A stretch of 64,000 nucleotides of DNA from Candidatus Saccharimonadota bacterium (GCA_017541245.1 JAFXZL010000002.1:18877-82876); one strand, 5' to 3'. Shown: positions 26,186-64,000, numbered from the stretch's first letter. Numbers and translations: made by a program. The notes: generated by a model not told the origin, from the sequence alone.

Positions 26186-26827
26186 ATGAAGAAAACCACA
26201 AGGACACTCGTAATGTTGCTAACCGTTGTCATGATGCTTGGTGTGTTTTCGACACCCGCCTTTGCCGCAACCAACAACAACAGTGCCGCCATGAAGAGAT
26301 CCACCAAGGATACTCAGGCCCTGGTTGACGCTGGCGAATATTATGGCTGGTCTGCCGATGTCAAGACGAAGTCTCAGACTCCAAGCAAGATCGTGACTAC
26401 AATCCGGCTCTTCAACGGAAAGAACTACATCTTCAACGTCACCCAGACGACGCAGAAGAAAGGTTCTTCCATCGCCACCAAGTACAACATCGGCGGCAAG
26501 AACTACGTACTGGCAGGGATAAAAGCCTCGCTAAAAAGGTACGCGTCTGGTGCCGGCAAGAGAGCCGTGTTGGAAGACAAGGTCAATATCGCAGCCGATG
26601 CGCTTGCAAAATACGCAAGAAAGATGGGCTGGACCGTCACCGACAAGAATGGCTACAAGAATGGCGCTGCAACCTGCAAGCACACTTACCGGAATGGCAA
26701 GTATCAATTCACTGCAGTCGTGAAAGGTGTACGCAAGAGCGGCAAGATTATGCTCAGCTACACCAGAGACCGTAGATCCTCGAGCAAAAAGGCCATCAAA
26801 GCCTGGCTGAAGACCTATGCGCAGTGA
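26186..26827 (+). CDS. secreted basic protein, unknown function (cassette B)
   Basis: AGGAAGGAG lies 8 nt before ATG 26186. The signal peptide is MKKTTRTLVMLLTVVMMLGVFSTPAFA/A. The mature part is K-rich. Codons are mostly C/G-ending. No family recognised. Confidence 0.6.
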   Translation: MKKTTRTLVMLLTVVMMLGVFSTPAFAATNNNSAAMKRSTKDTQALVDAGEYYGWSADVKTKSQTPSKIVTTIRLFNGKNYIFNVTQTTQKKGSSIATKYNIGGKNYVLAGIKASLKRYASGAGKRAVLEDKVNIAADALAKYARKMGWTVTDKNGYKNGAATCKHTYRNGKYQFTAVVKGVRKSGKIMLSYTRDRRSSSKKAIKAWLKTYAQ

Positions 26828-26847: not shown

Positions 26848-26871
26848 GCCGCCCCACGGGGCGGCGTTTTT
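26848..26871 (+). terminator. intrinsic terminator of cassette B
   Basis: GCCGCCC-cacg-GGGCGGC followed by GTTTTT. It abuts the mnmA stop codon. Confidence 0.7.
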
Positions 26872-27893: not shown

Positions 27894-27917
27894 TGGCTAT
27901 ATTATAACATCAAAGGC

Positions 27918-28203
27918 GCATCGCGGCTATGCCGCAGCTACGTCGTGGCTATTCTCCGCGGACGCGTACGGCGCCCGTCGTTGCGGGGCCGTTTGCTCTT
28001 TCTCGCCGTAGCTGCGAAGGCCGCGAAGAACCAGCCGCAACGTAACCGTAGCATGGTTGCGACATATCTATATCATCAGATTGACACCACATTGCGGTCA
28101 TGGCTCTCCACATCCGCAGTTACGACGAGGACGAGCGCGGCGACCCTGCGACGACAGGCGTCGCAAGCGTTGGAGGGGCATGACTGCGGTATGGCATCGA
28201 TGC
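27918..28203. repeat. ~286-nt GC-rich long imperfect inverted repeat (copy E2 of the dispersed family; MITE-like or structured RNA)
   Basis: The termini GCATCGCGGCTATGCCGCAG (27918-27937) and CTGCGGTATGGCATCGATGC (28184-28203) are 16/20 complementary. Internal arms also pair, for example CTCGCCGTAGCTGCG with CGCAGTTACGACGAG. The left arm resembles 4900-4953. Confidence 0.6.
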
Positions 28204-28294
28204 GATAGTATAACCAATTATGGAAAAATCAAGATAATAAAACTGATTTTGTTTATGCTAAAATAGATGTAGTATTAACTTTCATGGAGGTGGG

Positions 28295-45196: not shown

Positions 45197-45217
45197 TAAA
45201 TGTATTATACTTTAATT
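45197..45217. promoter_or_regulatory. 21-bp divergent region with overlapping -10 boxes (both genes apparently leaderless)
   Basis: The minus strand has TATAAT (45204-45209) 7 nt from the truB ATG. The plus strand has TATACT (45206-45211) 6 nt from ATG 45218. Confidence 0.5.
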
Positions 45218-46144
45218 ATGGAAAGAAAACCGAGATCAGGCGAGCAAAACAAACAAGAGGAAACAGAGCAGGATATACTAATTGCCGGCCCACAAACTGA
45301 ACAATACGGGAACGAGCAAGAAGTTCAACAAGATTCTTTTAACGAAGGTTTAACACTAATTAAGAGAGTTACCCGCGCACAATATATCGAACGATTACGC
45401 GCAGATCCGCAACGCAAGGAATCTATGAGGGGCCACGCCATGGATATAGCCGATACCGAAGATGCTTTTCGCGTTCGACTAGCGAGCATCAAGGAAAAAA
45501 GCGGCGAGATGTCCAAAAAAGAGTTTGAGCGTTGGGAAGATGATTACGCGGATAACTGGCGTTATCTGCAACAAGATTTGGCGCGTATGGATTACGATAA
45601 TAGTTCACAAGAAGCAATGGAATACGAGGCTGACGTTGAGGCCGCTATGTTTTCGAGTGAATCGCACCTAGACGAAGCAATTGAGGCTCGCTCTGGAGAT
45701 TATTACACCGAGCGTTCACGCGCATTACGAGACGCAATCAATGCCTCCGACGAAAAGACAAAACAATCAGATTTGAGCCTTCTTGGTAGCTTTTGGTCCT
45801 CCGTCGCGGAACATCTAGAATACAGATATACAACACAAGCCGAACTGCGCGATCAATATGGCGATGACATGTGGAGCCTACAACAATTTGATGAGCGCCG
45901 TACTGCTTCTCATAATGACGCAATTAAACACCTGAATTACTTGAATGACTTAGCACGCAAATACGGCACGAGGCCATTTACGCCACGCAATTTTTGGACT
46001 AGCCAAAACCAGCGCCAGACCCCCGCAATGTCGAACCGCATGAGCTATGATAGGCATGTTTTTGAATCATTCTATACGCACGCTTTTGGCAAAGAAAGCG
46101 TGGACCGAATTCGTCGCAAACACGAGCGCAATAGTTACTGGTAA
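45218..46144 (+). CDS. hypothetical protein (308 aa, acidic, soluble)
   Basis: Uninterrupted ORF. ATG at 45218 is placed 6 nt after a -10 box. No family recognised. Confidence 0.6.
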   Translation: MERKPRSGEQNKQEETEQDILIAGPQTEQYGNEQEVQQDSFNEGLTLIKRVTRAQYIERLRADPQRKESMRGHAMDIADTEDAFRVRLASIKEKSGEMSKKEFERWEDDYADNWRYLQQDLARMDYDNSSQEAMEYEADVEAAMFSSESHLDEAIEARSGDYYTERSRALRDAINASDEKTKQSDLSLLGSFWSSVAEHLEYRYTTQAELRDQYGDDMWSLQQFDERRTASHNDAIKHLNYLNDLARKYGTRPFTPRNFWTSQNQRQTPAMSNRMSYDRHVFESFYTHAFGKESVDRIRRKHERNSYW

Positions 46145-46155
46145 AGCGTAATCAA

Positions 46156-46184
46156 TTGACTTTTTTGGCAAAGTGTGCTATAAT
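46156..46184 (+). promoter_or_regulatory. sigma70-type promoter of cassette C
   Basis: TTGACT (46156-46161), a 17-nt spacer, then TGTGCTATAAT (-10 at 46179-46184). Confidence 0.65.
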
Positions 46185-46236
46185 AATGTTATTACTTCTG
46201 TCATTGAGTAATAAATCATAAAAGGGGGTGATGGTG

Positions 46237-46500
46237 ATGGCAGACGTAAAGAACAATGCCAATACCATCGACTTGATGCAGAGAGAAAAGTTTCGTGATG
46301 CTGTTTTTGCGCAGATTGCGAAACGTGAGGATTTTAGCCGTCTGGTTTGTCTTGGCGTCGATGCCTTGACCGAGGGCGAGAAGTCCGATCTCCGCGCGGC
46401 GATGGTTGTTGATGGCGTTTCTTTGGAGCCCACGGGCACTGACGCGGGACTTACCGCCGTCGCGAGAAGTATCACTGCTCGCGCAGTCAAATTAGCCTAG
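46237..46500 (+). CDS. small soluble hypothetical protein (cassette C, 87 aa)
   Basis: AAAGGGGG lies 8 nt before ATG 46237. Codons are GC-rich. A promoter lies upstream and a terminator downstream. No family recognised. Confidence 0.5.
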   Translation: MADVKNNANTIDLMQREKFRDAVFAQIAKREDFSRLVCLGVDALTEGEKSDLRAAMVVDGVSLEPTGTDAGLTAVARSITARAVKLA

Positions 46501-46522
46501 TCCAAGAAAAACCACAAAAAGC

Positions 46523-46556
46523 GCGGTCGCTCCATCCGGAACGGCCGCTTTTCTTT
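46523..46556 (+). terminator. intrinsic terminator of cassette C
   Basis: GCGGTCG...CGGCCGC stem with an inner TCC/GGA extension, followed by TTTTCTTT. Confidence 0.65.
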
Positions 46557-46573
46557 GGCAAATATTTTTTGGA

Positions 46574-47164
46574 TTAATCTTTATATTTTACGATGAAGGA
46601 TTCAATACCGGCTGAACCATTGGTTTCGTCTAGGCGATCATAAATTTTACCTTCACGTACATATAGAAGGACTGGTGCTTGTTCGCCGTTTAGGGTTATC
46701 TCTTCGGCGTAATCGTCATATTGGCTTGGCTCATCATTCTTTGGGTAATTATAGTGATAGACATTTGCCAAAACACCGTTGTTCCCTGCTACCTCAGTGA
46801 GGCGCTCTTCAAAGCTGACGCAGCCCGTGCAGTCATCGGAAGATGCATAAATAAAGCCAGTCTGGCCACTTTCGTAGAAATCGATTACGGAGCCGGCGCC
46901 GATGCTGAGCATTTCGCCTTCTTTCATGTTTTGGAGCTCCGTTGCGAACTGCCCCATAAATTGGCGACCATACTTGTGCTTCAAAGAATAATCAAAGATG
47001 ACGGTAAAGGAAATCGCAAAAGTTAATGCGACCAAGACAGCAGTTAATACGCATGCTAAGAAACAAATTGGTAGCGCATCATTCCTGCAGCCACAATTTG
47101 CGCACTTGCATTCTTTTCCGCATTCACATTTTTCAACTTTTTTCGAAGATTTGGTATTTGCCAT
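46574..47164 (-). CDS. membrane-anchored thioredoxin-fold protein with an N-terminal Cys cluster
   Basis: The N-terminus KCECGKECKCANCGC is followed by one TM. The external domain has a CxxC (DDCTGCVSF) in a thioredoxin-like context (...APVLLYVREGKIYD). Confidence 0.6.
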   Translation of the reverse strand: MANTKSSKKVEKCECGKECKCANCGCRNDALPICFLACVLTAVLVALTFAISFTVIFDYSLKHKYGRQFMGQFATELQNMKEGEMLSIGAGSVIDFYESGQTGFIYASSDDCTGCVSFEERLTEVAGNNGVLANVYHYNYPKNDEPSQYDDYAEEITLNGEQAPVLLYVREGKIYDRLDETNGSAGIESFIVKYKD

Positions 47165-47204
47165 AAGAATTCCTATTACGTTTAAGCTTATTTTACCACA
47201 AAAA

Positions 47205-47226
47205 ATATCTCCCCGTGGGGAGATAT
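47205..47226 (-). terminator. intrinsic terminator of rnj
   Basis: ATATCTCCCC-G-T-GGGGAGATAT palindrome, followed on the minus strand by TTTTTT. Confidence 0.7.
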
Positions 47227-47231
47227 TCGTT

Positions 47232-49421
47232 TTAGACCTTGTTGATGACCGGAATCACGATTGGCGTGTGGCCAGTTGCATCAAAGAGAATGTGCGTAAC
47301 GTCTTCCTTGATTTCTTCCTTCATCGCCTTGATGTCGTCGTCCGTAGAGATTGTATGATCAGTCTTCGCGCGGAGATAATGGCGGATCTTGCCGATTAGC
47401 TCCTCGGAGTTGTCGAGATAGATAAACGCGCGAGAAACAATATCAGGCGTCTTGATGAGGCGACCAGTTTTCTTACTGAGCGTCAAAATCACCACGAAAA
47501 TACCTTCGCGAGAAATATGAATACGGTCTTTTACGACAGCTTCATTAACTTGCTGATCGGCGTCGTCATAGAGCTTGTTGCCTACATGGATGCGACCGTT
47601 CTTGTGAATGGTTTGGTCTGGCATCAATTCGACGATATCACCGTCATCCGCAACAATAATGCGGTCTTTTGGAATACCGACAACATTCTCGGCCATTTCG
47701 GCGTTATGCTGCAACATGTAGAACTCGCCATGGTATGGCATATAGTTCTTTGGCTGCATATCGGTAACAAACTTTACATGATCCTCGAAGTAGGCGTGAC
47801 CAGAAAGATGAAGTGGGCCAATATTAGTAAGATGCGTTTTTCCGTTCTGAATAACCTGAGCACCTTCGCGAAGAAGGCCGCCAACCGTGTTTACGACCTT
47901 TGGCTCGTTACCCGGGATTGGGTTAGAGCTAAAGACGATAGTATCAGTGGCCTTAATCTTGATATAGCGATGTGCGCCAGAAATCATACGACTAAGAACT
48001 GCGTTCATTTCGCCCTGAGAACCAGTACAGACAATCGTGACGCGTTCGTCTGGAAGCTTGATGATATCTTCCATCTTCATGATGGTGTCTTTTGGTACCT
48101 TGATAGCCTTGGCGCGAAGTGCAACTTCAACGTTATTTATCATCGAATAACCAGCAAAGGCAACTTTACGACCACGAGCCGCAGCCTCTTTTAGCACGAG
48201 TTCGATGCGCTTAACCTGAGACGAGAAACAGGAAATAATTACGCGACCATTTGCGTAGTGATCCATGACACGACCCATGTTTTCGCCAACATCAAATTCG
48301 GAATGAGGATGCGTGCCTGGAGTGTCAATGTTTGTAGACTCGTTAAGAAGAAGTGCGTAGCCTTCCTTGTCGCGAATCTCGAGCATGCGATCATAATCTG
48401 CTGGAGTATCCATTGGATTTTTTTCGAAGCGCCAGTCGCCGGATAGCAAAATGTTGCCATTTGGCGTGCGAATAACGATAGATGTATTACCTGGAATAGA
48501 GTGCAAAGTATGGATAAACTCTGCAGAAAGATGCTCGGACAGTTTAATATTCTCGTGCTTGAGTGGGTCCACTTCGTGATAGTTCATATCTGGAATATCA
48601 GAAAGTTCAGACATCTGCTTCTTGATCATGCCAATCGTAAATGGGGTGGCATAAATTGGTACGAGCGGGCCAAAATATGGCAAAAGATGACGGCAGGCAC
48701 CAATGTGATCGAGGTGAGCGTGCGTAAACAGAATCGCTTTTACCTTGTCGCGGTTATCGTCGAGCCATTTGGAATCTGGCACCATATAGTTGACGCCAGG
48801 ATAATCTTCGCTTGCAAAAAGCGTACCCATATCAATGAGGACGATTTCGCCTTGATACTCGATGGCGGTCATATTCTTACCGATACCGAATTCGCCAAGA
48901 CCACCGATTGGAATAACGCGTACTGCATCTCTGTGCTGACGAGCCTGCTTAATCTGTGCCATTGTAATCTGCTGGCCGTTATAGCCATTGTAGCGAGATT
49001 TATTTACAGGGATGCCAATAATATGCTGCGTAGCCTGGGCGTTAACATCCTGGCTAAGCATACGCTGATGGTGAACCATCTCGCCCTTACGAGTCGAAAC
49101 GAGCAAGTTAACGTCACGTTTTTTGTCAGTATTGCTTGCAGCTTGTTTAGTTGCTTTGGAATTGCGTGCCGTATTGGATTTTTTTGCGGCGGCTTTCTTG
49201 CCGGTTGGCGTGGCAGCCTTTTTGACGGTTTTTGCAGCGGCGGTTTTGGTTGTCGTCTTTTTACGAACGAGTTTTTCGTCTTTGCCGCCTGGCGCAAAAT
49301 TGGCATTGAAATTACGTTTTTGGTTTTCCTCAAATGCCTTTTTTATGTCTGGCAAACGTTCAGCGCGCATTTTTAGGAGTTTTGCGCGGCGCTCAGCTTC
49401 TGCCTTGTTTTTATCGTTCAT
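47232..49421 (-). CDS. rnj: ribonuclease J with a ~165-aa Lys/Ala-rich N-terminal extension
   Basis: Metallo-beta-lactamase motif is FTHAHLDHIG. A beta-CASP region and an RNase J C-terminal domain are present. The N-terminus is KKTTTKTAAAKTVKKAATPTGKKAAAKK. Confidence 0.9.
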   Translation of the reverse strand: MNDKNKAEAERRAKLLKMRAERLPDIKKAFEENQKRNFNANFAPGGKDEKLVRKKTTTKTAAAKTVKKAATPTGKKAAAKKSNTARNSKATKQAASNTDKKRDVNLLVSTRKGEMVHHQRMLSQDVNAQATQHIIGIPVNKSRYNGYNGQQITMAQIKQARQHRDAVRVIPIGGLGEFGIGKNMTAIEYQGEIVLIDMGTLFASEDYPGVNYMVPDSKWLDDNRDKVKAILFTHAHLDHIGACRHLLPYFGPLVPIYATPFTIGMIKKQMSELSDIPDMNYHEVDPLKHENIKLSEHLSAEFIHTLHSIPGNTSIVIRTPNGNILLSGDWRFEKNPMDTPADYDRMLEIRDKEGYALLLNESTNIDTPGTHPHSEFDVGENMGRVMDHYANGRVIISCFSSQVKRIELVLKEAAARGRKVAFAGYSMINNVEVALRAKAIKVPKDTIMKMEDIIKLPDERVTIVCTGSQGEMNAVLSRMISGAHRYIKIKATDTIVFSSNPIPGNEPKVVNTVGGLLREGAQVIQNGKTHLTNIGPLHLSGHAYFEDHVKFVTDMQPKNYMPYHGEFYMLQHNAEMAENVVGIPKDRIIVADDGDIVELMPDQTIHKNGRIHVGNKLYDDADQQVNEAVVKDRIHISREGIFVVILTLSKKTGRLIKTPDIVSRAFIYLDNSEELIGKIRHYLRAKTDHTISTDDDIKAMKEEIKEDVTHILFDATGHTPIVIPVINKV

Positions 49422-49538
49422 TTATTCCTTTTTTTAATAGCTTTAATATTTAATTCCCACACTTAAGGCGCAGTATTTTCCTACAGTAATATAGGTGAAT
49501 AAGAGTTGTTGCGCTAAAAGTAATAACTTAGTGATTAT

Positions 49539-49567
49539 ATTATATCAAATACAGATAAAGATGTCAA
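49539..49567 (-). promoter_or_regulatory. sigma70-type promoter of rnj (gives a ~110-nt leader)
   Basis: On the minus strand: TTGACA (49562-49567), a 17-nt spacer, then TTTGATATAAT (-10 at 49539-49544). Confidence 0.6.
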
Positions 49568-49569
49568 AG

Positions 49570-49594
49570 AAAAACCCCGCCGGTGGAGGCGGGG
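49570..49594 (-). terminator. intrinsic terminator of cassette D
   Basis: CCCCGCC-tccacc-GGCGGGG on the minus strand, followed by TTTTT. Confidence 0.7.
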
Positions 49595-49640
49595 GTGCTG
49601 ATTCCTACTACCAAACAACCGAGATTGTCTCGTAGCAAAA

Positions 49641-50168
49641 TTACCAGCTAGTGCTTTTGGGAGTACTCCTCTTGGGCTTCGGGGTCTGGTACCAGACAAT
49701 GAGGTCGCGGAGAGTCATTGTAGGCTGCTCCTTTACCGTCTTGCCTTCTGTGGCCTTCTCGCGAGCCTTGACGGCTGCTTCATACAGACGCTTCACCTTG
49801 TTGCGGATTGCAGTGCGGAACTTGCTTTCAGGCATTGTAGAGCGGGCCATCGAGCGAAAGTCTTTGACGGCCTGTTCGGTACATTCAAGACCAAGTTCCT
49901 TAATGCTCTCCATTACGGCCCCCCATTGACGCTCGGTACGAGCGCTGAGCTCGTTGTATTTTTCGACAACGATACGGGAATTGCCGCCGTAATACTTGTT
50001 GAAAACGTACTGTACCTCCGGAGGCATCCAGCAATCAAGTTTGTCGTAGACGCCCCTGATTTGATTGTAGTCGCCTACGGTTTTAAGCCAGGCGTCCAAT
50101 CTCCAATAATAGAGTTCCTTCCCATTTTTTGCACTTGTAGAAGAGCTAAATGACACATGAATCACCAC
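49641..50168 (-). CDS. soluble hypothetical protein with a basic tail (cassette D)
   Basis: GC-rich ORF between its own promoter and terminator. The SD-like AAAGGTGGTGA suggests that the true start may be the second in-frame GTG at 50159. No family recognised. Confidence 0.55.
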   Translation of the reverse strand: MVIHVSFSSSTSAKNGKELYYWRLDAWLKTVGDYNQIRGVYDKLDCWMPPEVQYVFNKYYGGNSRIVVEKYNELSARTERQWGAVMESIKELGLECTEQAVKDFRSMARSTMPESKFRTAIRNKVKRLYEAAVKAREKATEGKTVKEQPTMTLRDLIVWYQTPKPKRSTPKSTSW

Positions 50169-50198
50169 CTTTCATTGATATGTGCCAACTCAGATATA

Positions 50199-50227
50199 AT
50201 TATAGCACAAACGCTTTAAAATGTCAA
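50199..50227 (-). promoter_or_regulatory. sigma70-type promoter of cassette D
   Basis: On the minus strand: TTGACATTTTAAAGCGTTTGTGCTATAAT. It differs at 1 of 29 positions from the cassette G promoter. Confidence 0.65.
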
Positions 50228-50235
50228 TGGCATAG

Positions 50236-50265
50236 CAAAAAGCCACCTCTGTTTTGAGGTGGCTT
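50236..50265 (-). terminator. intrinsic terminator (second hairpin after cassette E)
   Basis: AAGCCACCTC-aaaaca-GAGGTGGCTT on the minus strand, followed by TTTTT. Confidence 0.7.
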
Positions 50266-50304
50266 CAGTGTAGTCAGATTATTACTAAGTGCAATCTTGT
50301 AATT

Positions 50305-50330
50305 GAGGGGGAGTTTTGAGGCTCCCCCTC
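50305..50330 (-). terminator. GC-rich hairpin after the cassette E stop (first of two)
   Basis: GAGGGGGAG, an 8-nt loop, then CTCCCCCTC. The trailing sequence is only moderately U-rich. Confidence 0.45.
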
Positions 50331-50371
50331 GCAAGGTACCAGGCTGTGGGTCAGCCCAAAAGAAGAGTTAA

Positions 50372-51685
50372 CTATTCGACGTCGTCAGGATCCGGGTCGC
50401 CCTGGTTGACGCCGTCATCCTGAACTGCAGGCTCTACAGTTTCAGAACCGTGCTGGTCTTCCTGGATTTGGTTCAGATCTCCATGATCTTCACCGCCGCC
50501 GGCCTCTACTTCATAAGACCGGCCTCCATGCTCTTCTGTCGTGCCATCATCATGGTCAGCAGTGGCAGAACCGGAATCGGTTCCAGCCGAAGCATCGGGC
50601 TGTCCGTCAGACGTAGTAGGACCGCTATCGGAAGGAGCAGGTTCGGGCGTAGATGGAGCAGGCGGAGCGGGTGGAGTATAGGTCTCCGGAGAATCTGGCT
50701 CATCAGTAATGGTCTCATCAATGTCATGATTCTCACCGCCGCCAAAGTCCTCATACCCTGACTCCGTAGGATCAGCCTGCTGCTGCGGACCCGCATCGGG
50801 ATCCTTAGGCTCGGGCGTAGGCGTAGGTTCCGGAGTAGGCTCAGGAGTCGGTTCCGGAGTAGGTTCCGGTGTCGGCTCTGGCGTAGGTTCCGGAGTAGGC
50901 TCAGGGGTCGGCTCCGGAGTAGGTTCCGGAGTAGGCTCTGGCGTAGGTTCCGGAGTAGGTGTCGGCTCATCAGGAGGTACCGGCGGAGTCCAGTATGGAA
51001 TGTCTACTGGCTGATAGCCGCATTCCAACCTGAATTTCACGATTCCCGGCTTCCCGAGGTCAAACACTACCACGTGTCCACCTTCGTTCTGCGTGTCGCG
51101 AACGATAACGCTAGGCTTGTTGCCCTCAAGGTGGTTATGCCACTGATACATCTGGGACGTATAGTGGTCAAGCCCCTGAATGCTGATTTCCGAACTGGTC
51201 AGATAATCAGTGATTAAGGCAACTGCACGATCCCAATAGTCCTGATCCTTCAGGAAATGGAGATGTGCCGCGTCAGCCCTCTGGCCGATTAAGACGTCTT
51301 GCTCGTCGCGGAGAATCGTCTCCGGCAAAACAAGGCTCTCGTCCATATGAACCGCTACGGCAGCACAAAATGCAGGGTCGACTTTGATCGATTCGAAAAA
51401 GTCACCTGTTCCCTGGTTTGTTGCCACCCATTCCTGGACGGATGCCACCTTTCCTTCTGCGACGGCTTTGTCGGCCTGGGCCTTGCGGTCCGGGCCGAAG
51501 TTGAAGTTGTTGTTGCCAATGTCGTCGGCGTTCACATCATCATTGAAGTAGTGAATCACCCTACCAGAAGCAGCGTAGGCTGCCTGGATGATGCCACCCC
51601 TGATTGTCGGAACGCATAAACAGATGGCAAGAACAAGAAACACGGCGCTAATGATTGCGCCTTTTTTCGCTGTGCTAGTCTTCAT
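50372..51685 (-). CDS. exported protein with (PEPT)n repeats and an acidic tail, unknown function (cassette E)
   Basis: GGAAGGT lies 7 nt before ATG 51685. There is an N-terminal signal/TM (GAIISAVFLVLAICLCVP), a globular domain of about 200 aa, PTPEPTPEPTPEP... repeats and a D/E/G/S/T-rich C-terminus. Confidence 0.65.
   Translation of the reverse strand: MKTSTAKKGAIISAVFLVLAICLCVPTIRGGIIQAAYAASGRVIHYFNDDVNADDIGNNNFNFGPDRKAQADKAVAEGKVASVQEWVATNQGTGDFFESIKVDPAFCAAVAVHMDESLVLPETILRDEQDVLIGQRADAAHLHFLKDQDYWDRAVALITDYLTSSEISIQGLDHYTSQMYQWHNHLEGNKPSVIVRDTQNEGGHVVVFDLGKPGIVKFRLECGYQPVDIPYWTPPVPPDEPTPTPEPTPEPTPEPTPEPTPEPTPEPTPEPTPEPTPEPTPEPTPEPTPTPEPKDPDAGPQQQADPTESGYEDFGGGENHDIDETITDEPDSPETYTPPAPPAPSTPEPAPSDSGPTTSDGQPDASAGTDSGSATADHDDGTTEEHGGRSYEVEAGGGEDHGDLNQIQEDQHGSETVEPAVQDDGVNQGDPDPDDVE
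50821..50960 (-). repeat. 60-bp higher-order tandem repeat (about 2.3 copies) encoding (PEPT)5 units
   Basis: GCGTAGGTTCCGGAGTAGGCTCAGG... restarts at 50821, 50881 and 50941 with only a few substitutions per copy. The internal period is 12 bp. Confidence 0.8.
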
Positions 51686-51911
51686 TTGCGTCACCTTCCT
51701 TTCGGATTGGTCTTGCCCAACTTAGGGCAGATGTGAAAACACATAGATAGATATGCGCCTGCTATTACTAGCAAGCAAAGCACCCCTTCCCAGAGGGTGG
51801 AACTACAGAAAATAGTTTCTCTTCTTACTGCGTAGATTGTACGCAGTAATAATCTGGCTGTTAATGCTGCGTATTACGTAAGACTCCGCAAAGAATTACG
51901 AGTACCTATAT

Positions 51912-51940
51912 ATTATATCAAACTTACGCTTATTTGTCAA
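51912..51940 (-). promoter_or_regulatory. sigma70-type promoter of cassette E (gives a ~220-nt leader)
   Basis: On the minus strand: TTGACA (51935-51940), a 17-nt spacer, then TTTGATATAAT (-10 at 51912-51917). Confidence 0.6.
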
Positions 51941-51972
51941 GTCTTGTACCTCTTATGGCTAGCATTTGGGCT

Positions 51973-52001
51973 TTGACAAAGCCCTCAAGACTTGCTAAAA
52001 T
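51973..52001 (+). promoter_or_regulatory. sigma70-type promoter of nusA
   Basis: TTGACA (51973-51978), a 17-nt spacer, then TGCTAAAAT (-10 at 51996-52001). Confidence 0.6.
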
Positions 52002-52073
52002 GATTACATACAGATAAAGACCGGCTCGAAAAGAGGCGGTTTTATTAGTGTAAAAGATTAAAGAAAGGATTAT

Positions 52074-53195
52074 ATGGATCTAGATTTAAAGCAGATGATC
52101 GCAATGGTCGACATCATTGCCGAAGAAAAGAACCTACCAAGAGAGACCGTAATTGACGTGATCCAGCAAGCAATTGCTGCCGCATGGCGCAAGGATAATG
52201 GCGATAAAGATATGGATGTTCGTTGTGAGCTCGATTTGAACACCGGCGAGGCTGACATTTACATTCAGCGCGAAGTTATCGAGGATGACGTAGCTTACAA
52301 CCCAGCCACCGAGATTCCAAAAGCTGAAGCAAAAGGCAAAGAAATCGGCGAATTCGTCGAGGAAAAGCATAAAGTTGGCAGCTTTGGCCGCGTAGCATCC
52401 CAGACTGCAAAGCAGGTTGTAATTCAGCGCCTCCGCGAAGCAGAACGCGATGCCGTACTCGCAATGTTCGAAGACAAGATTGGCACTGTCGTAAACGGCA
52501 CAATCGTCCGCGTAGAGCCAAAGATTGTTCGCATTGACCTCGGTAAGGCTACTGGTATTATGCCAAAGTCCGAACAGATTGCCGGCGAATTCTATGCTGT
52601 TGGTTCCCGCGTAAAGGTTTTCATTAAAGAGATTGAACGCAACGAACGCGGCGCACAGCTTATTCTTAGCCGTGGTTGCCCACAGTTTATCGAGTATCTT
52701 TTCCGCCAGGAAGTTCCAGAAATCGAAAACGGCTCCGTCGAAATCAAGGCTATCGCCCGCGAAGCTGGCCGCCGCACCAAGATTGCAGTTGCCGCTACGA
52801 TGCCAGGCATCGACCCAGTTGGTACCTTTGTTGGTGGCCGCGGTGTTCGCGTCCAGGCTGTCATGAACGAAATCGGTGACCGCGAGAAAATCGATATCGT
52901 TAACTGGAGCGACAATATCTCTGAGTATATCCGCGAAGCCCTTAGCCCAGCCGAGATTCAAACCGTAGAAATCAAGGACAAGCACGCTACGGTTTATGTA
53001 GCCAAGGATCAGCAGTCAATTGCAATTGGCCGCGTTGGTCAGAACGTACGCCTAGCTTCTGACTTGACTGGCTACGAAATCGACGTAGAGGTCGCAAAAG
53101 CACCAGAAAAGAAGAAGAAAAAGAACGTTGAGGATTCCCTCCTCTCCGCTATCGAGGATAGTGAAGAAGACGAAGCCGAGAACGTCGAGGCATAA
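52074..53195 (+). CDS. nusA: transcription termination/antitermination factor NusA
   Basis: NusA N-terminal domain (IIAEEKNLPRETVIDVIQQAIAAAWRK). The S1 region is GTVVNGTIVRVEP...IDLG. KH repeats include IAIGRVGQNVRLAS. Confidence 0.92.
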   Translation: MDLDLKQMIAMVDIIAEEKNLPRETVIDVIQQAIAAAWRKDNGDKDMDVRCELDLNTGEADIYIQREVIEDDVAYNPATEIPKAEAKGKEIGEFVEEKHKVGSFGRVASQTAKQVVIQRLREAERDAVLAMFEDKIGTVVNGTIVRVEPKIVRIDLGKATGIMPKSEQIAGEFYAVGSRVKVFIKEIERNERGAQLILSRGCPQFIEYLFRQEVPEIENGSVEIKAIAREAGRRTKIAVAATMPGIDPVGTFVGGRGVRVQAVMNEIGDREKIDIVNWSDNISEYIREALSPAEIQTVEIKDKHATVYVAKDQQSIAIGRVGQNVRLASDLTGYEIDVEVAKAPEKKKKKNVEDSLLSAIEDSEEDEAENVEA

Positions 53196-53202
53196 AAACA
53201 TC

Positions 53203-53234
53203 AAAAAGACCCCCTCTAGCGGGGGTCTTTTTTT
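53203..53234. terminator. bidirectional intrinsic terminator
   Basis: AGACCCCC-tctagc-GGGGGTCT, flanked by AAAAA and TTTTTTT. It lies between convergent nusA and the 89-aa gene. Confidence 0.75.
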
Positions 53235-53502
53235 ATTTGTTCGTATTAGTGTTTTGGTTGGCGTTCTTGTTTTTGCACTTTACCGGGACCTTGACGCCAG
53301 CGCGACGCATAGCCTGTTGGGCCTGCTCGTCGCCACAGTTATCAGGTGATTCCTCTTCGCTAGTATTAATCGTAAGGGTGTCGCCATCGACATGCTTCAT
53401 GATGCCTTTAGCTAGCGCGCCTATCATGCCTACCGCAAGAAGAATGAAAACAATCAATAATACCTTACCGGCGCCGCTTTTTGCTCTCTCATGCGAATCC
53501 AT
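53233..53502 (-). CDS. small membrane protein (89 aa)
   Basis: One TM (VLLIVFILLAVGMIGALA) and a K/N-rich tail. TGCAATAAT lies 6 nt upstream of the ATG. Confidence 0.5.
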   Translation of the reverse strand: MDSHERAKSGAGKVLLIVFILLAVGMIGALAKGIMKHVDGDTLTINTSEEESPDNCGDEQAQQAMRRAGVKVPVKCKNKNANQNTNTNK

Positions 53503-53543
53503 ATTTTTATTATTGCACCAACATTCAAAACGTTCAAGCTTAC

Positions 53544-53572
53544 TTGACTTTCTGTGGTGTTTGTGCTATAAT
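53544..53572 (+). promoter_or_regulatory. sigma70-type promoter of cassette F
   Basis: TTGACT (53544-53549), a 17-nt spacer, then TGTGCTATAAT (-10 at 53567-53572). Confidence 0.65.
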
Positions 53573-53626
53573 TCTTGACTGTATCGCTCCATTGGAAGCG
53601 AATAAGAACATTGGGAGGCGAATAAC

Positions 53627-54124
53627 ATGCGTAAACTCATCGACTTCATCTGCGGCACCGTTTATCTCGGTCTGGTCCTCCTTCTTGTACTCGCCCTTGC
53701 ATTCAGTATTCTGTTCGGTATCAACCGCAACAACTCTACTAAGAACGCAGTCCGGGACAACGTCGTAAACGTACTTCAAGATCAAAGAAGCAAAGATGCT
53801 TACAATCTGCTCCGGGACAACGATTGGGACGGGTTCACGAAGCTCTACGGACTTGACCCTACGTACTACACGGTCGGCGACGAAGCCTACGTCTCGCTGG
53901 TTAGCGAAAACATGATGGAAACCATCATTATCCATGCCGGCAAAGCGAGACACAGCCAAGTTGAAGCCTTTGCGGTGCAAGGGTACGGCGAACACTGGGA
54001 AACCTTCAACATCGACGAGGGCTGCTCCCTGAGCGTGACCATCCTCGGAAAGACCGTGAACTTTACGCCCACCGGCGCAGCAACGCTGTGCCAGATTCTT
54101 TCTCGGCTGATGCCAGCCGAATAA
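53627..54124 (+). CDS. membrane-anchored hypothetical protein (cassette F)
   Basis: GGGAGG lies 8 nt before the ATG. The N-terminal TM is GTVYLGLVLLLVLALAFSILFGI. Codons are mostly C/G-ending. No family recognised. Confidence 0.6.
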   Translation: MRKLIDFICGTVYLGLVLLLVLALAFSILFGINRNNSTKNAVRDNVVNVLQDQRSKDAYNLLRDNDWDGFTKLYGLDPTYYTVGDEAYVSLVSENMMETIIIHAGKARHSQVEAFAVQGYGEHWETFNIDEGCSLSVTILGKTVNFTPTGAATLCQILSRLMPAE

Positions 54125-54149
54125 GCAACCACCTCTTCCTTTTTCCAAA

Positions 54150-54173
54150 GGCGCCCTATGCGGCGTCTTTTTC
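54150..54173 (+). terminator. intrinsic terminator of cassette F
   Basis: GGCGCC-ctatgc-GGCGTC followed by TTTTT. It overlaps the last codons of the convergent DUF2130 gene. Confidence 0.6.
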
Positions 54174-55358
54174 TAGCTCTGCGAACTTTGCTGCCATAGT
54201 CGGATTGCCGCGAGTAAGACGCTTAATGGTGAGATCTTCGGCTTTATTATTAGCGAGACGCAAGTTGTTCTCACTTGAGAGGAGCGCTTCCTTGGTCTTT
54301 TGAAGATGGGCGATTGTCTTATCAATTTCTTCTATAGCGGTGGAGAATTTGCGGCTAGCCAGCTCGTAATTGCGCGCAAATGACTGCTTAAAGTTTTCCA
54401 TGTTCTCTTCAAAATGCGTAATGTCGATGTTTTGGTTACGAATGATTGCGAGCTCTTCCTTATACTTCATGGAGTTTAGGGCGGCATTGCGTAGGAGCGT
54501 AATCATCGGAATGAAGAACTGCGGACGAATAACGTACATCTTGTCGTACTTATAGCTAACGTCAACGATGCCGGTGTTATACAGCTCGGAATCTGCCTCG
54601 AGGAGTGAAACCAGCACGGCGTATTCGCATTTTTTCTCTTTACGATCCTTATCTAGCTCTTTGAAGAAATCTTCATTTTTGTGCTTTGTGGCGGTAGCTT
54701 CGTTCTCATTCTTCATCTCAAACATGATAGAGATGATTTCGTTGCCGTTTTCGTCGTCTTCGCGGTAAATAAAGTCACCCTTGCTGCCAGTACGAGCATC
54801 ATTATCTTTTTCGAAATATGCATTTTTGAAAGCAGTGGCACGAAGGCGATTGAATTCGGTCTGGCAATGCTGCTCGAGCGTTTCGCCAACCATCTTTGTA
54901 CTAAGCTTGGATTTGAGATCTTTGAGGCGCTCGATTTCTTCATCTTTGAGCTTGATGGCGCCTTCATACTGGGTCTTTAGGGCGGCTTCGCGGAGCTTTA
55001 CCTGACTCTTAAGCGATTCTTCACGGAGTTTTGCTTCGGAATTCTTGGACTTTAGGTCGGACTTTACGGATTCAAGCTCTTTCTCGACGGGAGCGAGCGC
55101 ACGTGTGACGGCGAGCTCTTTATCTGTATCTGCTTGTTTTAGTTTAGCCTTGAGCTCAGAGATTTCTTTTGCCTGCTCGTTTTTTGCTTTCTCGACGGCG
55201 AGCTCCTTGGCGGAATTAGCCCTATCTAGTGCCTCCTTGATACGCTTCTCTACTTCATCTTCAAATTCATGCGTACGTACCTGGTTAAGGATGTCTGCAT
55301 AGCTGGAGTCGTCTACCTTAAAGGTGGTACCGCATTTTGGACATTTTATTTCTGACAT
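54156..55358 (-). CDS. DUF2130 protein with an N-terminal zinc ribbon and long coiled coil
   Basis: [28 protein letters not shown] start is typical of DUF2130. The middle is E/K-rich coiled coil and the C-terminal domain is conserved-looking. The start at 55358 has TATAAT 6 nt upstream. Confidence 0.8.
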
Positions 55359-55385
55359 ACTTTTATTATACACTAGGGGTAGATA

Positions 55386-55414
55386 TTGACATTTTATAGC
55401 GTTTGTGCTATAAT
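55386..55414 (+). promoter_or_regulatory. sigma70-type promoter of cassette G
   Basis: TTGACATTTTATAGCGTTTGTGCTATAAT, with a 17-nt spacer. Confidence 0.65.
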
Positions 55415-55486
55415 AAGGTTTATAGGCATTAAAACCTAGGCTCATTCCGAGAAGAAGGTTTTAGACCATAGAAGGGAGGGGATTAT

Positions 55487-55864
55487 ATGGCAAGAAAACC
55501 TAGTGGCAACAACAGCCACAGCTACGCTGACTATGATCCGAGTTTCGCGCAGAGAATGCGCGAGGAATGGAGAGAAAAGAATCCGTATTACCGCGGGATG
55601 GAGGCACGTACCATTCATGAAAACCTGTGGAGCAAGACTCCCAGTTTCTTCTGGATTGGATTTATCGGTCTCATCGCGTGGATCGCTTCACTGCTTCTGA
55701 AGCTGATGATTCCCGCAAAGTGGAAAGTCATTACTTGGCTCATTGGCGCCATTGGCACCGTGGGCAAGTGGGCGTTCTTCATCGGCGCAGGCATCATCGT
55801 TCTACTATTCCTTGTAGGACTCGCGTTCAAGATCGGCGACTGGCTGAAAAATGCCAGGTGGTAA
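55487..55864 (+). CDS. small membrane protein (cassette G, 125 aa)
   Basis: GGGAGGGG SD. The N-terminal half is hydrophilic and two to three TM segments follow (FFWIGFIGLIAWIASLLL, VITWLIGAIG, FFIGAGIIVLLFLVGLAF). No family recognised. Confidence 0.6.
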   Translation: MARKPSGNNSHSYADYDPSFAQRMREEWREKNPYYRGMEARTIHENLWSKTPSFFWIGFIGLIAWIASLLLKLMIPAKWKVITWLIGAIGTVGKWAFFIGAGIIVLLFLVGLAFKIGDWLKNARW

Positions 55865-55883
55865 GTGGCGTTGCCACATCACA

Positions 55884-55913
55884 ATGGGTCTCCCTCCGGG
55901 GAGGCCCATTTTC
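55884..55913 (+). terminator. intrinsic terminator of cassette G
   Basis: ATGGGTCTCCC-tccg-GGGAGGCCCAT, an 11-bp stem with one G-U pair, followed by TTTTC. It abuts the stop of the convergent ATPase gene. Confidence 0.7.
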
Positions 55914-58546
55914 TATTGCTTGGATTTCGCAATAGAGTTTGCGATGAGTTTATAAATTTCCATTATGACTAGGATAATAAGCGCGATGCCGAATAGGCCA
56001 AGCATCTGGAGCGCCGGAATCGAAACGGTCTGGAGTAGATTGGATAGGAATGGTACTTCCATAACGATAATCTGCAGTAGTAGAGTACCAAGGATACCAA
56101 AGAGCATGATTGGATTGCGGCGAATCGGCACGCTAAAGGCGGAGCGACGTTCGCTGCGGCAGTTGAATACGTGTACGTTCTGGATGAATACCATCAAACA
56201 CATTGTGTAGCCACGAGCAACCTCGATGTCCATCTTGAGAATATTGCAGAAGAACCAGTATGCCGCAAAGGCCACGCTTGCGATAATTGCACCAGATACG
56301 ATGATTTCGCGTAAGAGTGATTTGTCGAAGATTGACTCTTTTGGATCGCGTGGTTTTTCCTGCAAGATGCCCTTCTCTGCTTTCTCGAAAGACATCGCAA
56401 AGTCCTGGATGCCGTCTGTCACGACATTAAGCCAGAGGAGCTGAACCGCTACGAGTGGCATAGGCATATCCATAGCAATAGCAAGACAGAAGAATGCAGC
56501 CTCCGCTAAACCGCAGGAAATGAGGAAGAAAATAATCTTGCGAATATTGGAATAGGCGACACGCCCCTCTTTGACGCCTGCGACGATAGACTTGAAGTTG
56601 TCGTCAACGATAATCATATCGGCAGTTTCGCGCGCAATATCCGTACCGGACCCCATTGCTACGCCGATATTGGCCGCCTTAAGCGCTGGGGCATCATTTA
56701 CGCCATCGCCAGTTACAGCAACGAATTCACCTTGACGCTTCAATGAATTTACAATATTGAGCTTCTGAATTGGCGTAACGCGTGCAAATACGAGCTTACT
56801 GGAAACGAATTTGTCGAAGTGAGCCTTACCCTCTTTGAAGGCTACGTCGACGTCGTTGCCGGTTGCTACCTGATCATAATTCTCGACAAGCTTTAAATCT
56901 TTTGCAATCGAAAAAGCGGTGAGCGGATGGTCTCCGGTGATCATCATAACCTTAATGCCAGCCTCATGGCATTCACGGATGGAGGCAACGGCCTCTTTGC
57001 GGATTGGATCAATGAAACCTACCATACCAGCAAAGTCGAGCTTCTTGATATCTTTTTCGTTATATTCTTCTTTGCGTGGAACTTTACCGTTTGCGAGCGC
57101 AATCACACGATAGCCATCGCGAGCAAGGTTTTCATTCTGCTGGTCCAATTTCCTGAAATCTTTGGCCGAGTCGTTCGTGAAACGAATTGTGGAACAGAAA
57201 CTCCTGACAACTTCGAGTGAGCCTTTGACCGTACAATACGTCTCGCCATTTTTCTCATAAAAGACTGCGGAATATTTGTTCTCGGATTCGTATGGAATCA
57301 TATGTAGAACTTTGACGTTGTTCGTTTTGACGCCAAGCTTCTTTGCTAAGACGAGGAATGCGATATCGATAGAGTCGCCAGTTGGTTCGTGATCGATGTT
57401 TGCCTCGTTATTGAGTGCGCCATAAAAGCCAATTTCTTCAGCATTTTGCAGTGTCGCACCAGTAACTTTGCCCTTAGTATCGAAACCCGTACCAGAAACT
57501 TGATAATCCTGACCGTTCGGCAAAAGGATAATCTTTGCAGTCTGCTGGTTTACGGTGAGAGTGCCGGTTTTATCTGAAGCAATTACCGTACAGCTACCAA
57601 GAGATTCGGCGGCTTTGAGCTTGCGTACAATAACATTCTTCTTTGCCATGCGGTTTGACGCAATCGTGAGCGCCATCGTCAAAGCCAAAGGCAAACCCTC
57701 TGGCATGGCGGAAACCGCAAAAGCGATTACCGTCACAAAGATTTCATTATATGGGACTTGTTTGACGATAAGAAGAATCGCAATAAGTGCAGCAACAGAC
57801 AAGACGAGAATGCTGATTTGTTTCGAAAGTTTTTCGACGCGAATTGTGAGTGGAGACTTCTCTTCCTCGGTATTCGCGAGACTGTCGGCAATTTTACCAA
57901 GCTCAGTATCGAGAGCGATTCCTGTTACGATTGCATGGGCGCGACCAGATACGACCGTAGTGCCAGAAAATACCATATTTGATTGGTCGTTTATGGCGAC
58001 CTTCTCTTTTTGGACTACATCTGGCGTTTTTGCTACCTGGACACTTTCACCAGTCAAAATAGACTCGTCTACGGTGAAGTTTTGCGTATCAATAAGACGC
58101 ATATCGGCTGTTATTTTGTCGCCAGATTCTAGGGCAACAACATCGCCAATAGTCAAATTCTCAGCATCAATGTCATGAATCTGACCATCACGAAAGACTT
58201 TGGCTTTTACCGTCACAAGACTCGCGAGCGCTTCGGCTGTGTTATTGGCTTTATTCTCTTGATATGTGCCCATAATGGCATCGACAAGAATAATAGCGGC
58301 AATCACCAAGGCATCGACCACCTCGCCCACGACAGCGGATGCAACGATTGCAGCAACGAGCAGTAACACCATCGGGTCGATAAACTCACGGATGAAGATT
58401 TTAAGAATACTATCTTTTTTCTTCTTTGGCAGAATATTTTTACCATATTTCGCCTGGCGATCGGACGCCTCTTTTGAGCTTAGACCATGTTCGCTGGATT
58501 TTAGCTCGGAAAATATATCCGCTGTTGTCTTGTTATAGAAAGCCAT
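55913..58546 (-). CDS. P-type cation-transporting ATPase (P2, Ca2+-ATPase-like)
   Basis: Motifs are DKTGTLT, TGDHPLTA and TGDGVNDAPALKAANIGVAMG, with 10-TM-type topology. The start is taken at MAFYNKTTADIF (58546). The longer ORF to 58699 runs into the divergent gene. Confidence 0.9.
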   Translation of the reverse strand: MAFYNKTTADIFSELKSSEHGLSSKEASDRQAKYGKNILPKKKKDSILKIFIREFIDPMVLLLVAAIVASAVVGEVVDALVIAAIILVDAIMGTYQENKANNTAEALASLVTVKAKVFRDGQIHDIDAENLTIGDVVALESGDKITADMRLIDTQNFTVDESILTGESVQVAKTPDVVQKEKVAINDQSNMVFSGTTVVSGRAHAIVTGIALDTELGKIADSLANTEEEKSPLTIRVEKLSKQISILVLSVAALIAILLIVKQVPYNEIFVTVIAFAVSAMPEGLPLALTMALTIASNRMAKKNVIVRKLKAAESLGSCTVIASDKTGTLTVNQQTAKIILLPNGQDYQVSGTGFDTKGKVTGATLQNAEEIGFYGALNNEANIDHEPTGDSIDIAFLVLAKKLGVKTNNVKVLHMIPYESENKYSAVFYEKNGETYCTVKGSLEVVRSFCSTIRFTNDSAKDFRKLDQQNENLARDGYRVIALANGKVPRKEEYNEKDIKKLDFAGMVGFIDPIRKEAVASIRECHEAGIKVMMITGDHPLTAFSIAKDLKLVENYDQVATGNDVDVAFKEGKAHFDKFVSSKLVFARVTPIQKLNIVNSLKRQGEFVAVTGDGVNDAPALKAANIGVAMGSGTDIARETADMIIVDDNFKSIVAGVKEGRVAYSNIRKIIFFLISCGLAEAAFFCLAIAMDMPMPLVAVQLLWLNVVTDGIQDFAMSFEKAEKGILQEKPRDPKESIFDKSLLREIIVSGAIIASVAFAAYWFFCNILKMDIEVARGYTMCLMVFIQNVHVFNCRSERRSAFSVPIRRNPIMLFGILGTLLLQIIVMEVPFLSNLLQTVSIPALQMLGLFGIALIILVIMEIYKLIANSIAKSKQ

Positions 58547-63461: not shown

Positions 63462-63575
63462 TAATTCGGCATCTTGCTAGTTTCCCGCAAAGCAGTATAA
63501 TCGCCGCTACCAGGCTTGACTTCTGTGTTCGGGATGAGAACAGGTATTTCCCTGGCGCTATGGACACCGAGAAAA
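63462..63575 (-). rRNA. rrf: 5S ribosomal RNA (ends approximate)
   Basis: The reverse complement reads ...TCGGTGTCCATAGCGCCAGGGAAATACCTGTTCTCATCCCGAACACAGAAGTCAAGCCTGGTAGCGGCGATTATACTGC...GATGCCGA. It contains the universal CCGAACACAGAAGT(C/T)AAGC core and pairing termini. Confidence 0.85.
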
Positions 63576-63739
63576 GACACTAAGGGCGTACCGAAAATCC
63601 AATGGTACTGTTTTAGTATCTTATCTCGATGTAAGATGCAATGAAATTTTAATTGACTTGGTGATTAAACACCAATTACTAGTTAAGTCTACTCTACTTA
63701 TTGTATCTATGCAAGCATAAAAGCAATAAGTAGAAACAT

Positions 63740-64000
63740 AAAAAGGCAATGCCTCTATTAGTATGCTTCGGCTCCACATGTTGCCATGCGTCCACCTTGC
63801 ACCTATCAACCAGATCATCTTTCTGGGAGGTCATAGGGAATTCTTATCTTGGAGTCAGTTTCGCGCTTAATATGCTTTCAGCGCTTATCTATTCCGAACA
63901 TAGCTACTCGGCAATGCAGCAGGTGGCCACAACCGATACACTAGAGATTCGTTCACCTCGGTCCTCTCGTACTAGAGGCAAATCTCCTCAAAATTCCTAA
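63740..64000 (-). rRNA. rrl: 23S ribosomal RNA, 3'-terminal ~260 nt (partial; continues beyond the window)
   Basis: The reverse complement contains the sarcin-ricin loop region CTAGTACGAGAGGACCGAGGTG, then GCTGAAAGCATATTAAGCGCGAAAC and GGTTGATAGG...ACTAATAG near the 3' end. Confidence 0.9.

Follow-up and report, generated by a model that had tools for sequence, protein, structure and literature searches.

Introduction

How do genes of deviant composition and of no recognizable family come to be lodged between conserved housekeeping genes of a bacterial chromosome: have they been brought in from a foreign donor, or are they native genes following an evolutionary way of their own? The question is raised by a stretch of 64,000 nucleotides (nt) from a Candidatus Saccharimonadota bacterium (GCA_017541245.1 JAFXZL010000002.1:18877-82876; hereafter "the window", positions being counted from its first letter), in which a sequence-only reading had delineated seven expression cassettes of the same build, A to G, five of them packed between positions 46156 and 55913. 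That reading took them for laterally acquired or fast-evolving lineage-specific genes placed under strong native-type promoters, with a higher-GC actinobacterial host or its phages as possible donor and expression-driven codon bias as the alternative. The evidence assembled below makes it probable that the cassettes are native, vertically inherited genes of narrow range within Saccharibacteria, that their raised frequency of G or C at third codon positions (GC3) is a gene-specific steady state, and that the mRNA of cassette E pairs its two ends.

Orthologs in Place and Rates of Evolution

The window (45.9% G+C) is assigned to a Nanosyncoccus-like member of Saccharibacteria (TM7) on the strength of its nusA gene (52074-53195), whose product is 99% identical to that of Candidatus Saccharibacteria bacterium UBA3723 (locus L001) and 70–96% identical to the proteins encoded by nusA of other Saccharibacteria and Nanosyncoccus metagenome-assembled genomes from guts and rumens. 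Orthologs of the cassette genes kept in place were sought by tblastn across 38 related loci, and the ratio of non-synonymous to synonymous divergence (dN/dS) was calculated according to Nei and Gojobori for cassettes and neighboring genes. In L001 the same slots are occupied by C (coding sequence 46237-46500(+), 87 amino acids (aa)), D (49641-50156(-), 171 aa, GTG start), E (50372-51685(-), 437 aa), F (53627-54124(+), 165 aa), and G (55487-55864(+), 125 aa), while D, E, F, and G are found in their slots in L002 and C and D in L003. Gene B (26186-26827(+), 213 aa) lies between alaS and mnmA in both L081 and L082, its promoter being conserved in each. Thus, the expectation that the cassettes might prove to be presence/absence polymorphisms between conserved flanks was not borne out, since six of the seven are conserved in place, together with their promoters, within the near clade; such positional conservation of orthologs had been named by the sequence-only reading among the findings that would speak against it.

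Although anchored in position, these genes diverge much faster than their surroundings. Relative to L001, protein identity amounts to 88% for C, 91% for D, 85% for E, 87% for F, and 62% for G, the last being the fastest evolving cassette, against 98–99% for nusA and 97% for rnj; relative to L002, it falls to 80% (D), 66% (E), 48% (F), and 52% (G), with nusA and rnj still at 95% and 96%; and relative to L003 only 35% and 45% are left for D and C, respectively. The D slot contains a homolog of 25% identity in L004 and a near-identical open reading frame (ORF) of 149 aa with the same promoter and C-terminal motif, as judged by eye, in L007. B retains 79% identity to its L081 counterpart, where alaS and mnmA retain 98%, and 58% to the one from L082, where mnmA retains 82%. 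Divergence therefore tracks species order, L001 being closer than L002 and L081 closer than L082. With dN/dS of 0.07–0.15 in cassettes versus 0.01–0.03 in neighbors, and with dN exceeding that of neighboring genes 4–20 times, the cassette ORFs prove to be genuine genes, subject to purifying selection whose constraint is relaxed or shifting, and the description of them as fast-evolving lineage-specific genes is upheld.

The same slots are not always filled by the same genes. In L003 and L009, the rnj–nusA slot and the one separating nusA from the next conserved gene hold other small, often hydrophobic ORFs. In L001, an additional 1.7 kb (762-2477) separates the RF-like and truB-like genes, opposite window position 44543, and holds a single ORF of about 580 aa; its lack in the window is a real presence/absence difference in this slot. 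Two ORFans were seen in the relative L019, one between nusA and tuf under a consensus promoter (1713-2696(-)) and another between tuf and rpsJ (4188-4739(+)); their GC3, 0.50 and 0.46, is not raised over the bulk value of 0.52. The comparison of loci thus pictures a conserved housekeeping backbone, the inter-gene slots of which appear to gain, lose, and rapidly remodel lineage-specific genes. Fast evolution was also observed for three window genes lacking a consensus promoter: 45200-46144(+), encoding an acidic protein of 314 aa (78% identity to L001), 46574-47164(-), encoding a Cys-rich thioredoxin-like protein with a transmembrane (TM) segment (89, 69, and 36% to L001, L002, and L003, respectively), and 53233-53502(-), encoding a membrane-anchored protein of 89 aa (81% to L001 and 43% to L002).

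Codon Usage and Its Persistence Between Species

The bulk GC3 of the window is 0.461, and 50 bulk genes deviate from it with z-scores between −2.6 and +1.9, as binomial sampling predicts. Cassette genes account for the six highest values in the window: 8.4 for A1 (1198-1836(-), 212 aa, placed by the geometry of its Shine–Dalgarno (SD) sequence and start), 6.1 for B, 5.2 for F, 3.9 for G, 3.8 for D, and 3.1 for E, followed by nusA with 2.6. Neither C (z = 1.8) nor A2 (976-1173(-), 65 aa, z = 1.9), which has its own SD and is co-transcribed with A1, is a significant outlier, so the foreign composition initially ascribed to all seven cassettes is confirmed for A1, B, D, E, F, and G and fails for these two genes. 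In absolute terms, GC3 reaches 0.67 in B, 0.66 in F, and 0.75 in A1, the extreme case, where CTG serves 13 of 18 Leu, AAG 17 of 20 Lys, and ATC all nine Ile codons, and where the distance of codon usage from that of bulk genes corresponds to a z-score of 12.8. Codons enriched in the cassettes include ATC, AAC, TTC, AAG, and CAG, likewise enriched in the EF-Tu gene of L019, as well as CTG, CGG, AGG, CCC, and GGG, which are otherwise rare and avoided by EF-Tu.

This composition is not confined to the window, since GC3 is equally high in the orthologs (0.65/0.68 for D, 0.64/0.66 for F, 0.65/0.69 for G, and 0.64/0.62 for B). Codon identity at conserved residues in comparison with L002 is 0.44 for cassettes and 0.45 for their neighbors, implying that synonymous sites are saturated in both alike, and the probability that a codon with A or T at the end in the window ends with G or C in L002 is 0.52 for cassettes versus 0.41 for neighbors. 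High GC3 retained across saturated sites argues for a maintained equilibrium and not for donor DNA awaiting amelioration. In comparison with the closer L001, codon identity is 0.67–0.74 for C, D, E, and F, 0.74 for nusA, and 0.63 for rnj, versus 0.47–0.60 for other genes, which links synonymous constraint to strongly promoted genes. The raised GC3 may be kept up by a directional force tied to strong transcription or mRNA stability, for which selection for stable mRNA, transcription-coupled repair lowering AT-biased mutation, and biased gene conversion are candidates. Expression or codon-usage data for this clade were not found in the literature. Long ORFs shadowing the cassettes on the opposite strand were also considered as potential genes and discarded; they mostly occupy the codon-aligned antisense frame, which is open in nusA too, and were taken for a by-product of composition.

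Transcription Units

All constituents of the proposed build—promoter, leader, SD, and terminator—were recovered for each cassette. Sequence scanning placed promoters at 1917-1945(-) for A, 26081-26109(+) for B, 46156-46184(+) for C, 50199-50227(-) for D, 51912-51940(-) for E, 53544-53572(+) for F, and 55386-55414(+) for G, and all seven coincide with TTGACA/TATAAT in 11–12 of 12 positions, with a 17-nt spacer and TG ahead of the −10 element, so that the sites read TTGACA, 17 nt, and then TGTGC-TATAAT or TTTGA-TATAAT. Altogether 12 extended −10 promoters of this type were detected in the window, whereas first-order Markov simulations give 0.54 on average and two at most. Since the same type precedes rnj (49567(-)), nusA (51973(+)), and the HSP20 gene (69(-)), with another site at 11764(+), it is native and not exclusive to the cassettes. 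Gram-positive sigma-A promoters can carry an extended −10 or "−16" TRTG motif, and at the level of sequence the cassette promoters look the same as such promoters. The D and G promoters, taken as 50199-50228 and 55385-55414, match in 29 of 30 positions, spacer included (an inverted repeat of 97% complementarity); this exceeds what the consensus needs and speaks for a duplicated promoter or for a spacer under constraint.

Leaders of about 25–215 nt are followed by GGAGG-type SDs located 5–9 nt 5′ of the start codon in each cassette; the longest ORF of A1, B, C, and E begins a few codons ahead of the true start. Every cassette is closed by a G+C-rich hairpin with a T run, the terminators being mapped at 928-956(-) for A, 26848-26872(+) for B, 46523-46556(+) for C, 49566-49594(-) for D, 50234-50263(-) for E, 54150-54174(+) for F, and 55883-55917(+) for G. 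With such promoters and SDs, the cassettes would be expected to be highly expressed. As to the suggestion that native flanking genes are often leaderless, about 20 of 57 other genes do look so, having a TATAAT-like −10 box, often with TGn, roughly 3–9 nt before ATG and no SD (for instance, alaS (26045(-)), mnmA (27893(-)), and the truB-like gene (45196(-))), while each of the eight cassette ORFs is led by an SD. On this evidence, roughly one third of the window genes may be translated from leaderless mRNAs.

The E Unit and Probable Pairing of Its Ends

The longest cassette product, E, starts with a hydrophobic anchor or signal, continues with a novel alpha+beta domain and a (PEPT)n linker, and ends with an acidic tail. 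It can no longer be called an ORFan, since its N-terminal domain has at least 82 homologous clusters (350–410 aa, 30–91% identity), every named one of them from Saccharibacteria. The common build of the family includes a hydrophobic N-terminus, a domain of about 200 aa with invariant RLECGYQP, a P/T-rich linker, and a conserved acidic tail. The AlphaFold2 model of the domain is confident (pLDDT 88.6, pTM 0.82), with N-terminal helices at residues 4–39, and found no counterpart with E < 0.1 or TM-score > 0.4 in PDB and BFVD, viral folds thus being unmatched. The DNA of the linker (50796-50987) is a 12-nt tandem repeat of about 12 registers, and both the length and the sequence of the linker differ widely among family members.

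The 5′ leader of E (51686-51905(-), about 215 nt) is complementary to a segment of its 3′ untranslated region (UTR), the two arms, 51834-51859(-) and 50272-50297(-), pairing in 23 of 26 positions. Complementarity between the leader and the segment just downstream of E recurs in all 13 units of the family examined, over distances of 1.36–2.25 kb and with 23–30 paired positions out of 34 per unit. In an ungapped alignment of 12 sequences, 92% of cells are paired over a helix of 25 bp, and compensatory double changes affect 12 of the 25 pairs in 35 cells, a level attained by none of 500 shuffles; if the partner is slid by 1–3 columns, only 26–42% of cells remain paired and 1–4 pairs are doubly changed. 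Because complementarity was the criterion by which the arms had been sought, the percentage of paired cells is inflated, but covariation is not. A weak spot composed of a G-U pair adjoining a mismatch keeps a fixed position in most sequences.

The leader itself, conserved in both L001 and L002, is structured (z = −3.0), and a conserved local hairpin (51825-51849) overlaps its 5′ arm. Since this arm sits about 130 nt upstream of the SD (near 51700), the latter is not occluded. Complementarity between 5′ and 3′ UTRs did not exceed shuffles in A, B, C, D, F, and G, and Rfam at gathering and E ≤ 1 thresholds recognized only 5S and 23S rRNA, with no leader or UTR family among the matches. All things considered, the 25-bp leader-to-3′UTR helix around E appears to be a previously undescribed conserved pairing, which may either provide a site for RNase III processing or close the mRNA ends against exonucleases.

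In relatives E lies in a richer, conserved neighborhood. The order runs as prfA, prmC, a reverse-oriented hypothetical gene, promoter with leader, a gene for a two-TM protein (164–274 aa), and E, followed by the genes for an LPxTG CLIPPER surface protein, for a hypothetical product of about 380 aa, and for a TrbL_3 protein of 1,100–1,300 aa, a TrbL-like component of type IV secretion; genes for sortase or Cna_B proteins occur nearby. E is sometimes present in two copies, and the two-TM gene then follows the first copy in some loci. The two-TM protein (encoded at 3452-3967 in L090, 3406-3972 in L091, 3443-3967 in L092, 2395-2973 in L094, and 5375-5995 in L089) contains repeated H-T-x-x-E-H-x-x-T-R-like motifs and two C-terminal TM helices, and its gene is co-transcribed upstream of E. 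In the clade of the window, promoter, leader, E, and 3′ UTR stand alone between D and nusA, the whole unit having moved there, into the rnj–nusA slot. Cassette G was tried as a relocated homolog of the two-TM gene and rejected (hhalign probability of 2%).

Raised GC3 accompanies the unit as well: in six of seven further E loci it is 0.63–0.75 for the two-TM gene and 0.52–0.62 for E compared with 0.36–0.58 for neighbors, values of 0.70–0.75 for the two-TM gene in L089–L092 and L094 being the highest in those loci, and the elevation extends across the family down to 30% protein identity. In L088 (9412-9735) and L093 (6277-6559), where a CLIPPER gene comes after the second E copy, its leader repeats the first module of the E-unit leader—AGCTAATTACAAG, hairpin, GCAAGAAGCGC, and TTAACAA—without the 5′ arm, as seen by eye. 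This suggests a modular leader RNA that may be common to the E cluster.

Products of the Other Cassettes

No family above cut-off was found for any cassette product in Pfam, PHROGs, NCBIfam, or PADLOC, in agreement with the initial impression. A1 combines an N-terminal domain with a P/A/E/K-rich linker, after which come a TLEEL motif and the basic tail. An exhaustive HMMER search against 1.84 billion representatives retrieved one close cluster (92%) and three true remote homologs (27–32%), which keep the N-terminal domain and the linker and one of which belongs to a cluster named as Saccharibacteria; hence, the label of ORFan does not suit A1 either. Tblastn of A1 against phages gave no match, and scanning of JGI metagenome contigs gave a low-complexity match only. 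The TLEEL motif and basic tail recur in A2, and a TLRDL motif with basic tail in D, so the basic tails noticed earlier in all three proteins are indeed present, each after a short helix motif of TL type. Among 4,067 ORF pieces, the pattern TL[ER][ED]L[ILM]x[LYW][HY] with a basic tail behind it is confined to these three, a uniqueness that is partly circular because the pattern was derived from A1, A2, and D themselves. TLEEL or SLEQL was also seen in the remote A1 homologs P0104–P0106, and a related helix in D-like proteins of L004 and L007. The C-terminal motif may represent a shared docking or targeting module.

B is Lys-rich with a signal-peptide-like N-terminus (AFA/A) and has eight homologous clusters. 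C, with orthologs in L001 and L003, is small and soluble. For D, 11 homologous clusters were collected; the homologs retrieved for A1, B, D, and E come only from Saccharibacteria or from metagenome proteins without a name. As to the structure of D, its AlphaFold2 model is an all-helical bundle (pLDDT 84.2) lacking PDB matches with E < 0.1 or TM-score > 0.4. F has an N-terminal membrane anchor, recognized by eye, and G has two to three C-terminal hydrophobic segments. Secretion or membrane anchoring is thus suggested for B, E, F, and G, their signal and TM segments being assigned by eye from sequence.

Among features outside the cassettes, an imperfect palindrome of about 290 nt (27917-28204, about 60% G+C) separates mnmA from the gene that follows, and a single extended hairpin is predicted for it (−143 kcal/mol, z = −6.1 for the plus and −5.1 for the minus strand); it is rearranged in L081, apparently absent in L082 (gap of 88 nt), and unmatched in Rfam. 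At the window edge, Rfam identified a 5S rRNA gene (63464-63571(-)) and the 3′ end of 23S rRNA (63737-64000(-)). No tRNA genes were found within the 64 kb, and no mobility genes were encountered among neighbors of A (a PPDK_N-like gene and a Band_7 gene) and B by Pfam or among those of C–G, which were judged by eye only, in line with the remark that integrases, transposases, and tRNAs are not adjacent.

Discussion

An outlying GC3 and codon usage, culminating in A1 with its GC3 of 0.75, 13 CTG among 18 Leu codons, and codon distance of 12.8, together with enrichment of rare codons, could easily be attributed to recent acquisition from a donor of higher GC content (an actinobacterial host or its phages), with native promoters added later and GC3 not yet decayed, the more so as the in-place orthology established here concerns the six cassettes other than A. 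Such a history is, nevertheless, very improbable. Six cassettes occupy the same places in sister species and diverge in species order, GC3 is preserved over saturated synonymous divergence and across the E family, all named homologs belong to Saccharibacteria, neither phage matches for A1 nor viral-fold matches for E exist in the databases searched, and no tRNA or integrase is adjacent. Lateral transfer is thereby rejected, as largely refuted, for B–G, and it is unsupported for A. Still less, indeed next to nothing, can be granted to the supposition that the ORFs are not genes and that the regions are non-coding or mis-framed. Its only prop is the long shadow ORFs of the opposite strand, whereas dN/dS far below 1 in the frames assigned, full-length alignment of distant homologs, confident models of E and D, and SD and start geometry fitting these frames have already refuted it for B–G. 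Another simple solution would be that the composition reflects nothing but translational optimization and the products are ordinary abundant housekeeping factors awaiting annotation. Strong promoters and SDs, synonymous divergence reduced as in nusA and rnj, and the enrichment of ATC, AAC, TTC, AAG, and CAG shared with EF-Tu of L019 all agree with it, and the reduced synonymous divergence fits the expression-driven bias proposed earlier. The set of codons as a whole (CTG, CGG, AGG, CCC, and GGG included) does not comply: the shift is uncorrelated with that of EF-Tu and S10 or of nusA and rnj, and codons avoided by EF-Tu are enriched. This combination means that plain translational optimization does not explain GC3. 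Moreover, the proteins evolve 4–20 times faster than housekeeping neighbors, and distant relatives carry other genes in some of the slots, so we consider this solution unlikely.

For the arms around E, a DNA-level explanation has about the same small chance. They might be inverted repeats of an invertible or formerly mobile segment whose covariation came from concerted evolution, as might be guessed from their bracketing whole ORFs of surface-type proteins, from G-U being about as common as A-C, and from the changed genomic position of the E unit in the clade of the window. However, E ORFs are co-oriented with the promoter in 13 of 13 units, even if assemblies show the majority orientation only; Pfam detected no recombinase families in E-family loci with called genes, with 3–6 kb of flank on each side; the fixed spot of mismatch and G-U should have been erased by homogenizing repeats; and the 5′ arm is at the same time part of the conserved local hairpin of a structured leader. 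The resemblance to invertons is thus limited to inverted repeats flanking a segment, as neither a recombinase nor a second orientation was seen. Native origin with a steady-state GC3 and paired mRNA ends remains the probable reading, each cassette presumably acting as its own transcription unit in a slot between conserved housekeeping genes. Several observations nonetheless weigh against it. Copies of cassette A found in relatives are only identical or 92% identical, plus homologs at 27–32%. The codon shift of cassettes has no correlate in EF-Tu and S10 of L019, a species other than that of the window (r = −0.13), or in nusA and rnj of the window itself (r = −0.06), and HSP20 combines a perfect promoter with ordinary GC3 (0.49). 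In L093, the E copies have GC3 of 0.48 and 0.47 and the gene between them 0.47, within the range of their neighbors (0.42–0.51). Finally, G-U and A-C account for 17 and 15 cells of the helix overall and for 14 and 7 in its core by hand count, and since G-U is not clearly commoner, constraint at the level of RNA rather than DNA is not proven.

Compared to known classes of genes, the cassettes resemble the fast-evolving, taxonomically restricted genes by which host-associated bacteria of reduced genome size encode surface or secreted proteins, in having small products devoid of known domains, high dN under overall purifying selection, location between core genes, and slots some of which are filled otherwise in distant relatives, and differ in having their own near-consensus promoter and terminator and GC3 raised across species, a combination that to our knowledge has not been described for such genes. 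With horizontally acquired islets they share atypical GC3 and codons, self-sufficient organization, and products of obscure function, but not mobility genes, tRNAs, donor homologs, or decaying composition, and their orthologs follow species order. For the E unit, the nearest precedent is icaR mRNA of Staphylococcus aureus, where the 3′ UTR pairs with the 5′ UTR at the Shine–Dalgarno sequence and represses translation (Ruiz de los Mozos et al., 2013, PMC3868564). In both cases a segment of the 3′ UTR finds its partner in the transcript's own 5′ UTR, and the long duplex would be a potential RNase III substrate. In the E unit, however, about 130–190 nt separate the 5′ arm from the SD downstream of it, a local hairpin overlaps this arm, and the 25-bp helix has a fixed internal weak spot, encloses one or two ORFs, and covaries throughout the family. 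RNase III processing stems are also formed by sequences flanking 16S and 23S rRNA. They resemble the E helix in that complementary segments, 1.4–2.3 kb apart in our case, bracket a functional RNA in a long duplex, whereas here the bracketed RNA is a protein-coding mRNA and its cleavage is only proposed.

For screens of horizontal transfer in genomes of CPR/Patescibacteria, the case matters in that atypical composition here does not equal lateral transfer. The E helix, kept from 30% to 100% protein identity beside LPxTG adhesin and TrbL genes, is a concrete RNA element, testable in Saccharibacteria now that these are accessible to genetic manipulation (PMC10187176), and together with the persistent elevation of GC3 it is the part most worth following. 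The genes enclosed by the helix and the other strongly promoted cassettes would hold GC3 10–30 points above the genome as a steady state. That end pairing and GC-rich codons form one strategy for stable and abundant mRNAs of fast-evolving envelope or host-interface proteins is conceivable, although we would give it somewhat less than an even chance. B, E, F, and G, along with the group of A1, A2, and D sharing the tail motif, may be regarded as the most plausible lineage-specific host-interface factors of this gut or rumen clade of Saccharibacteria.

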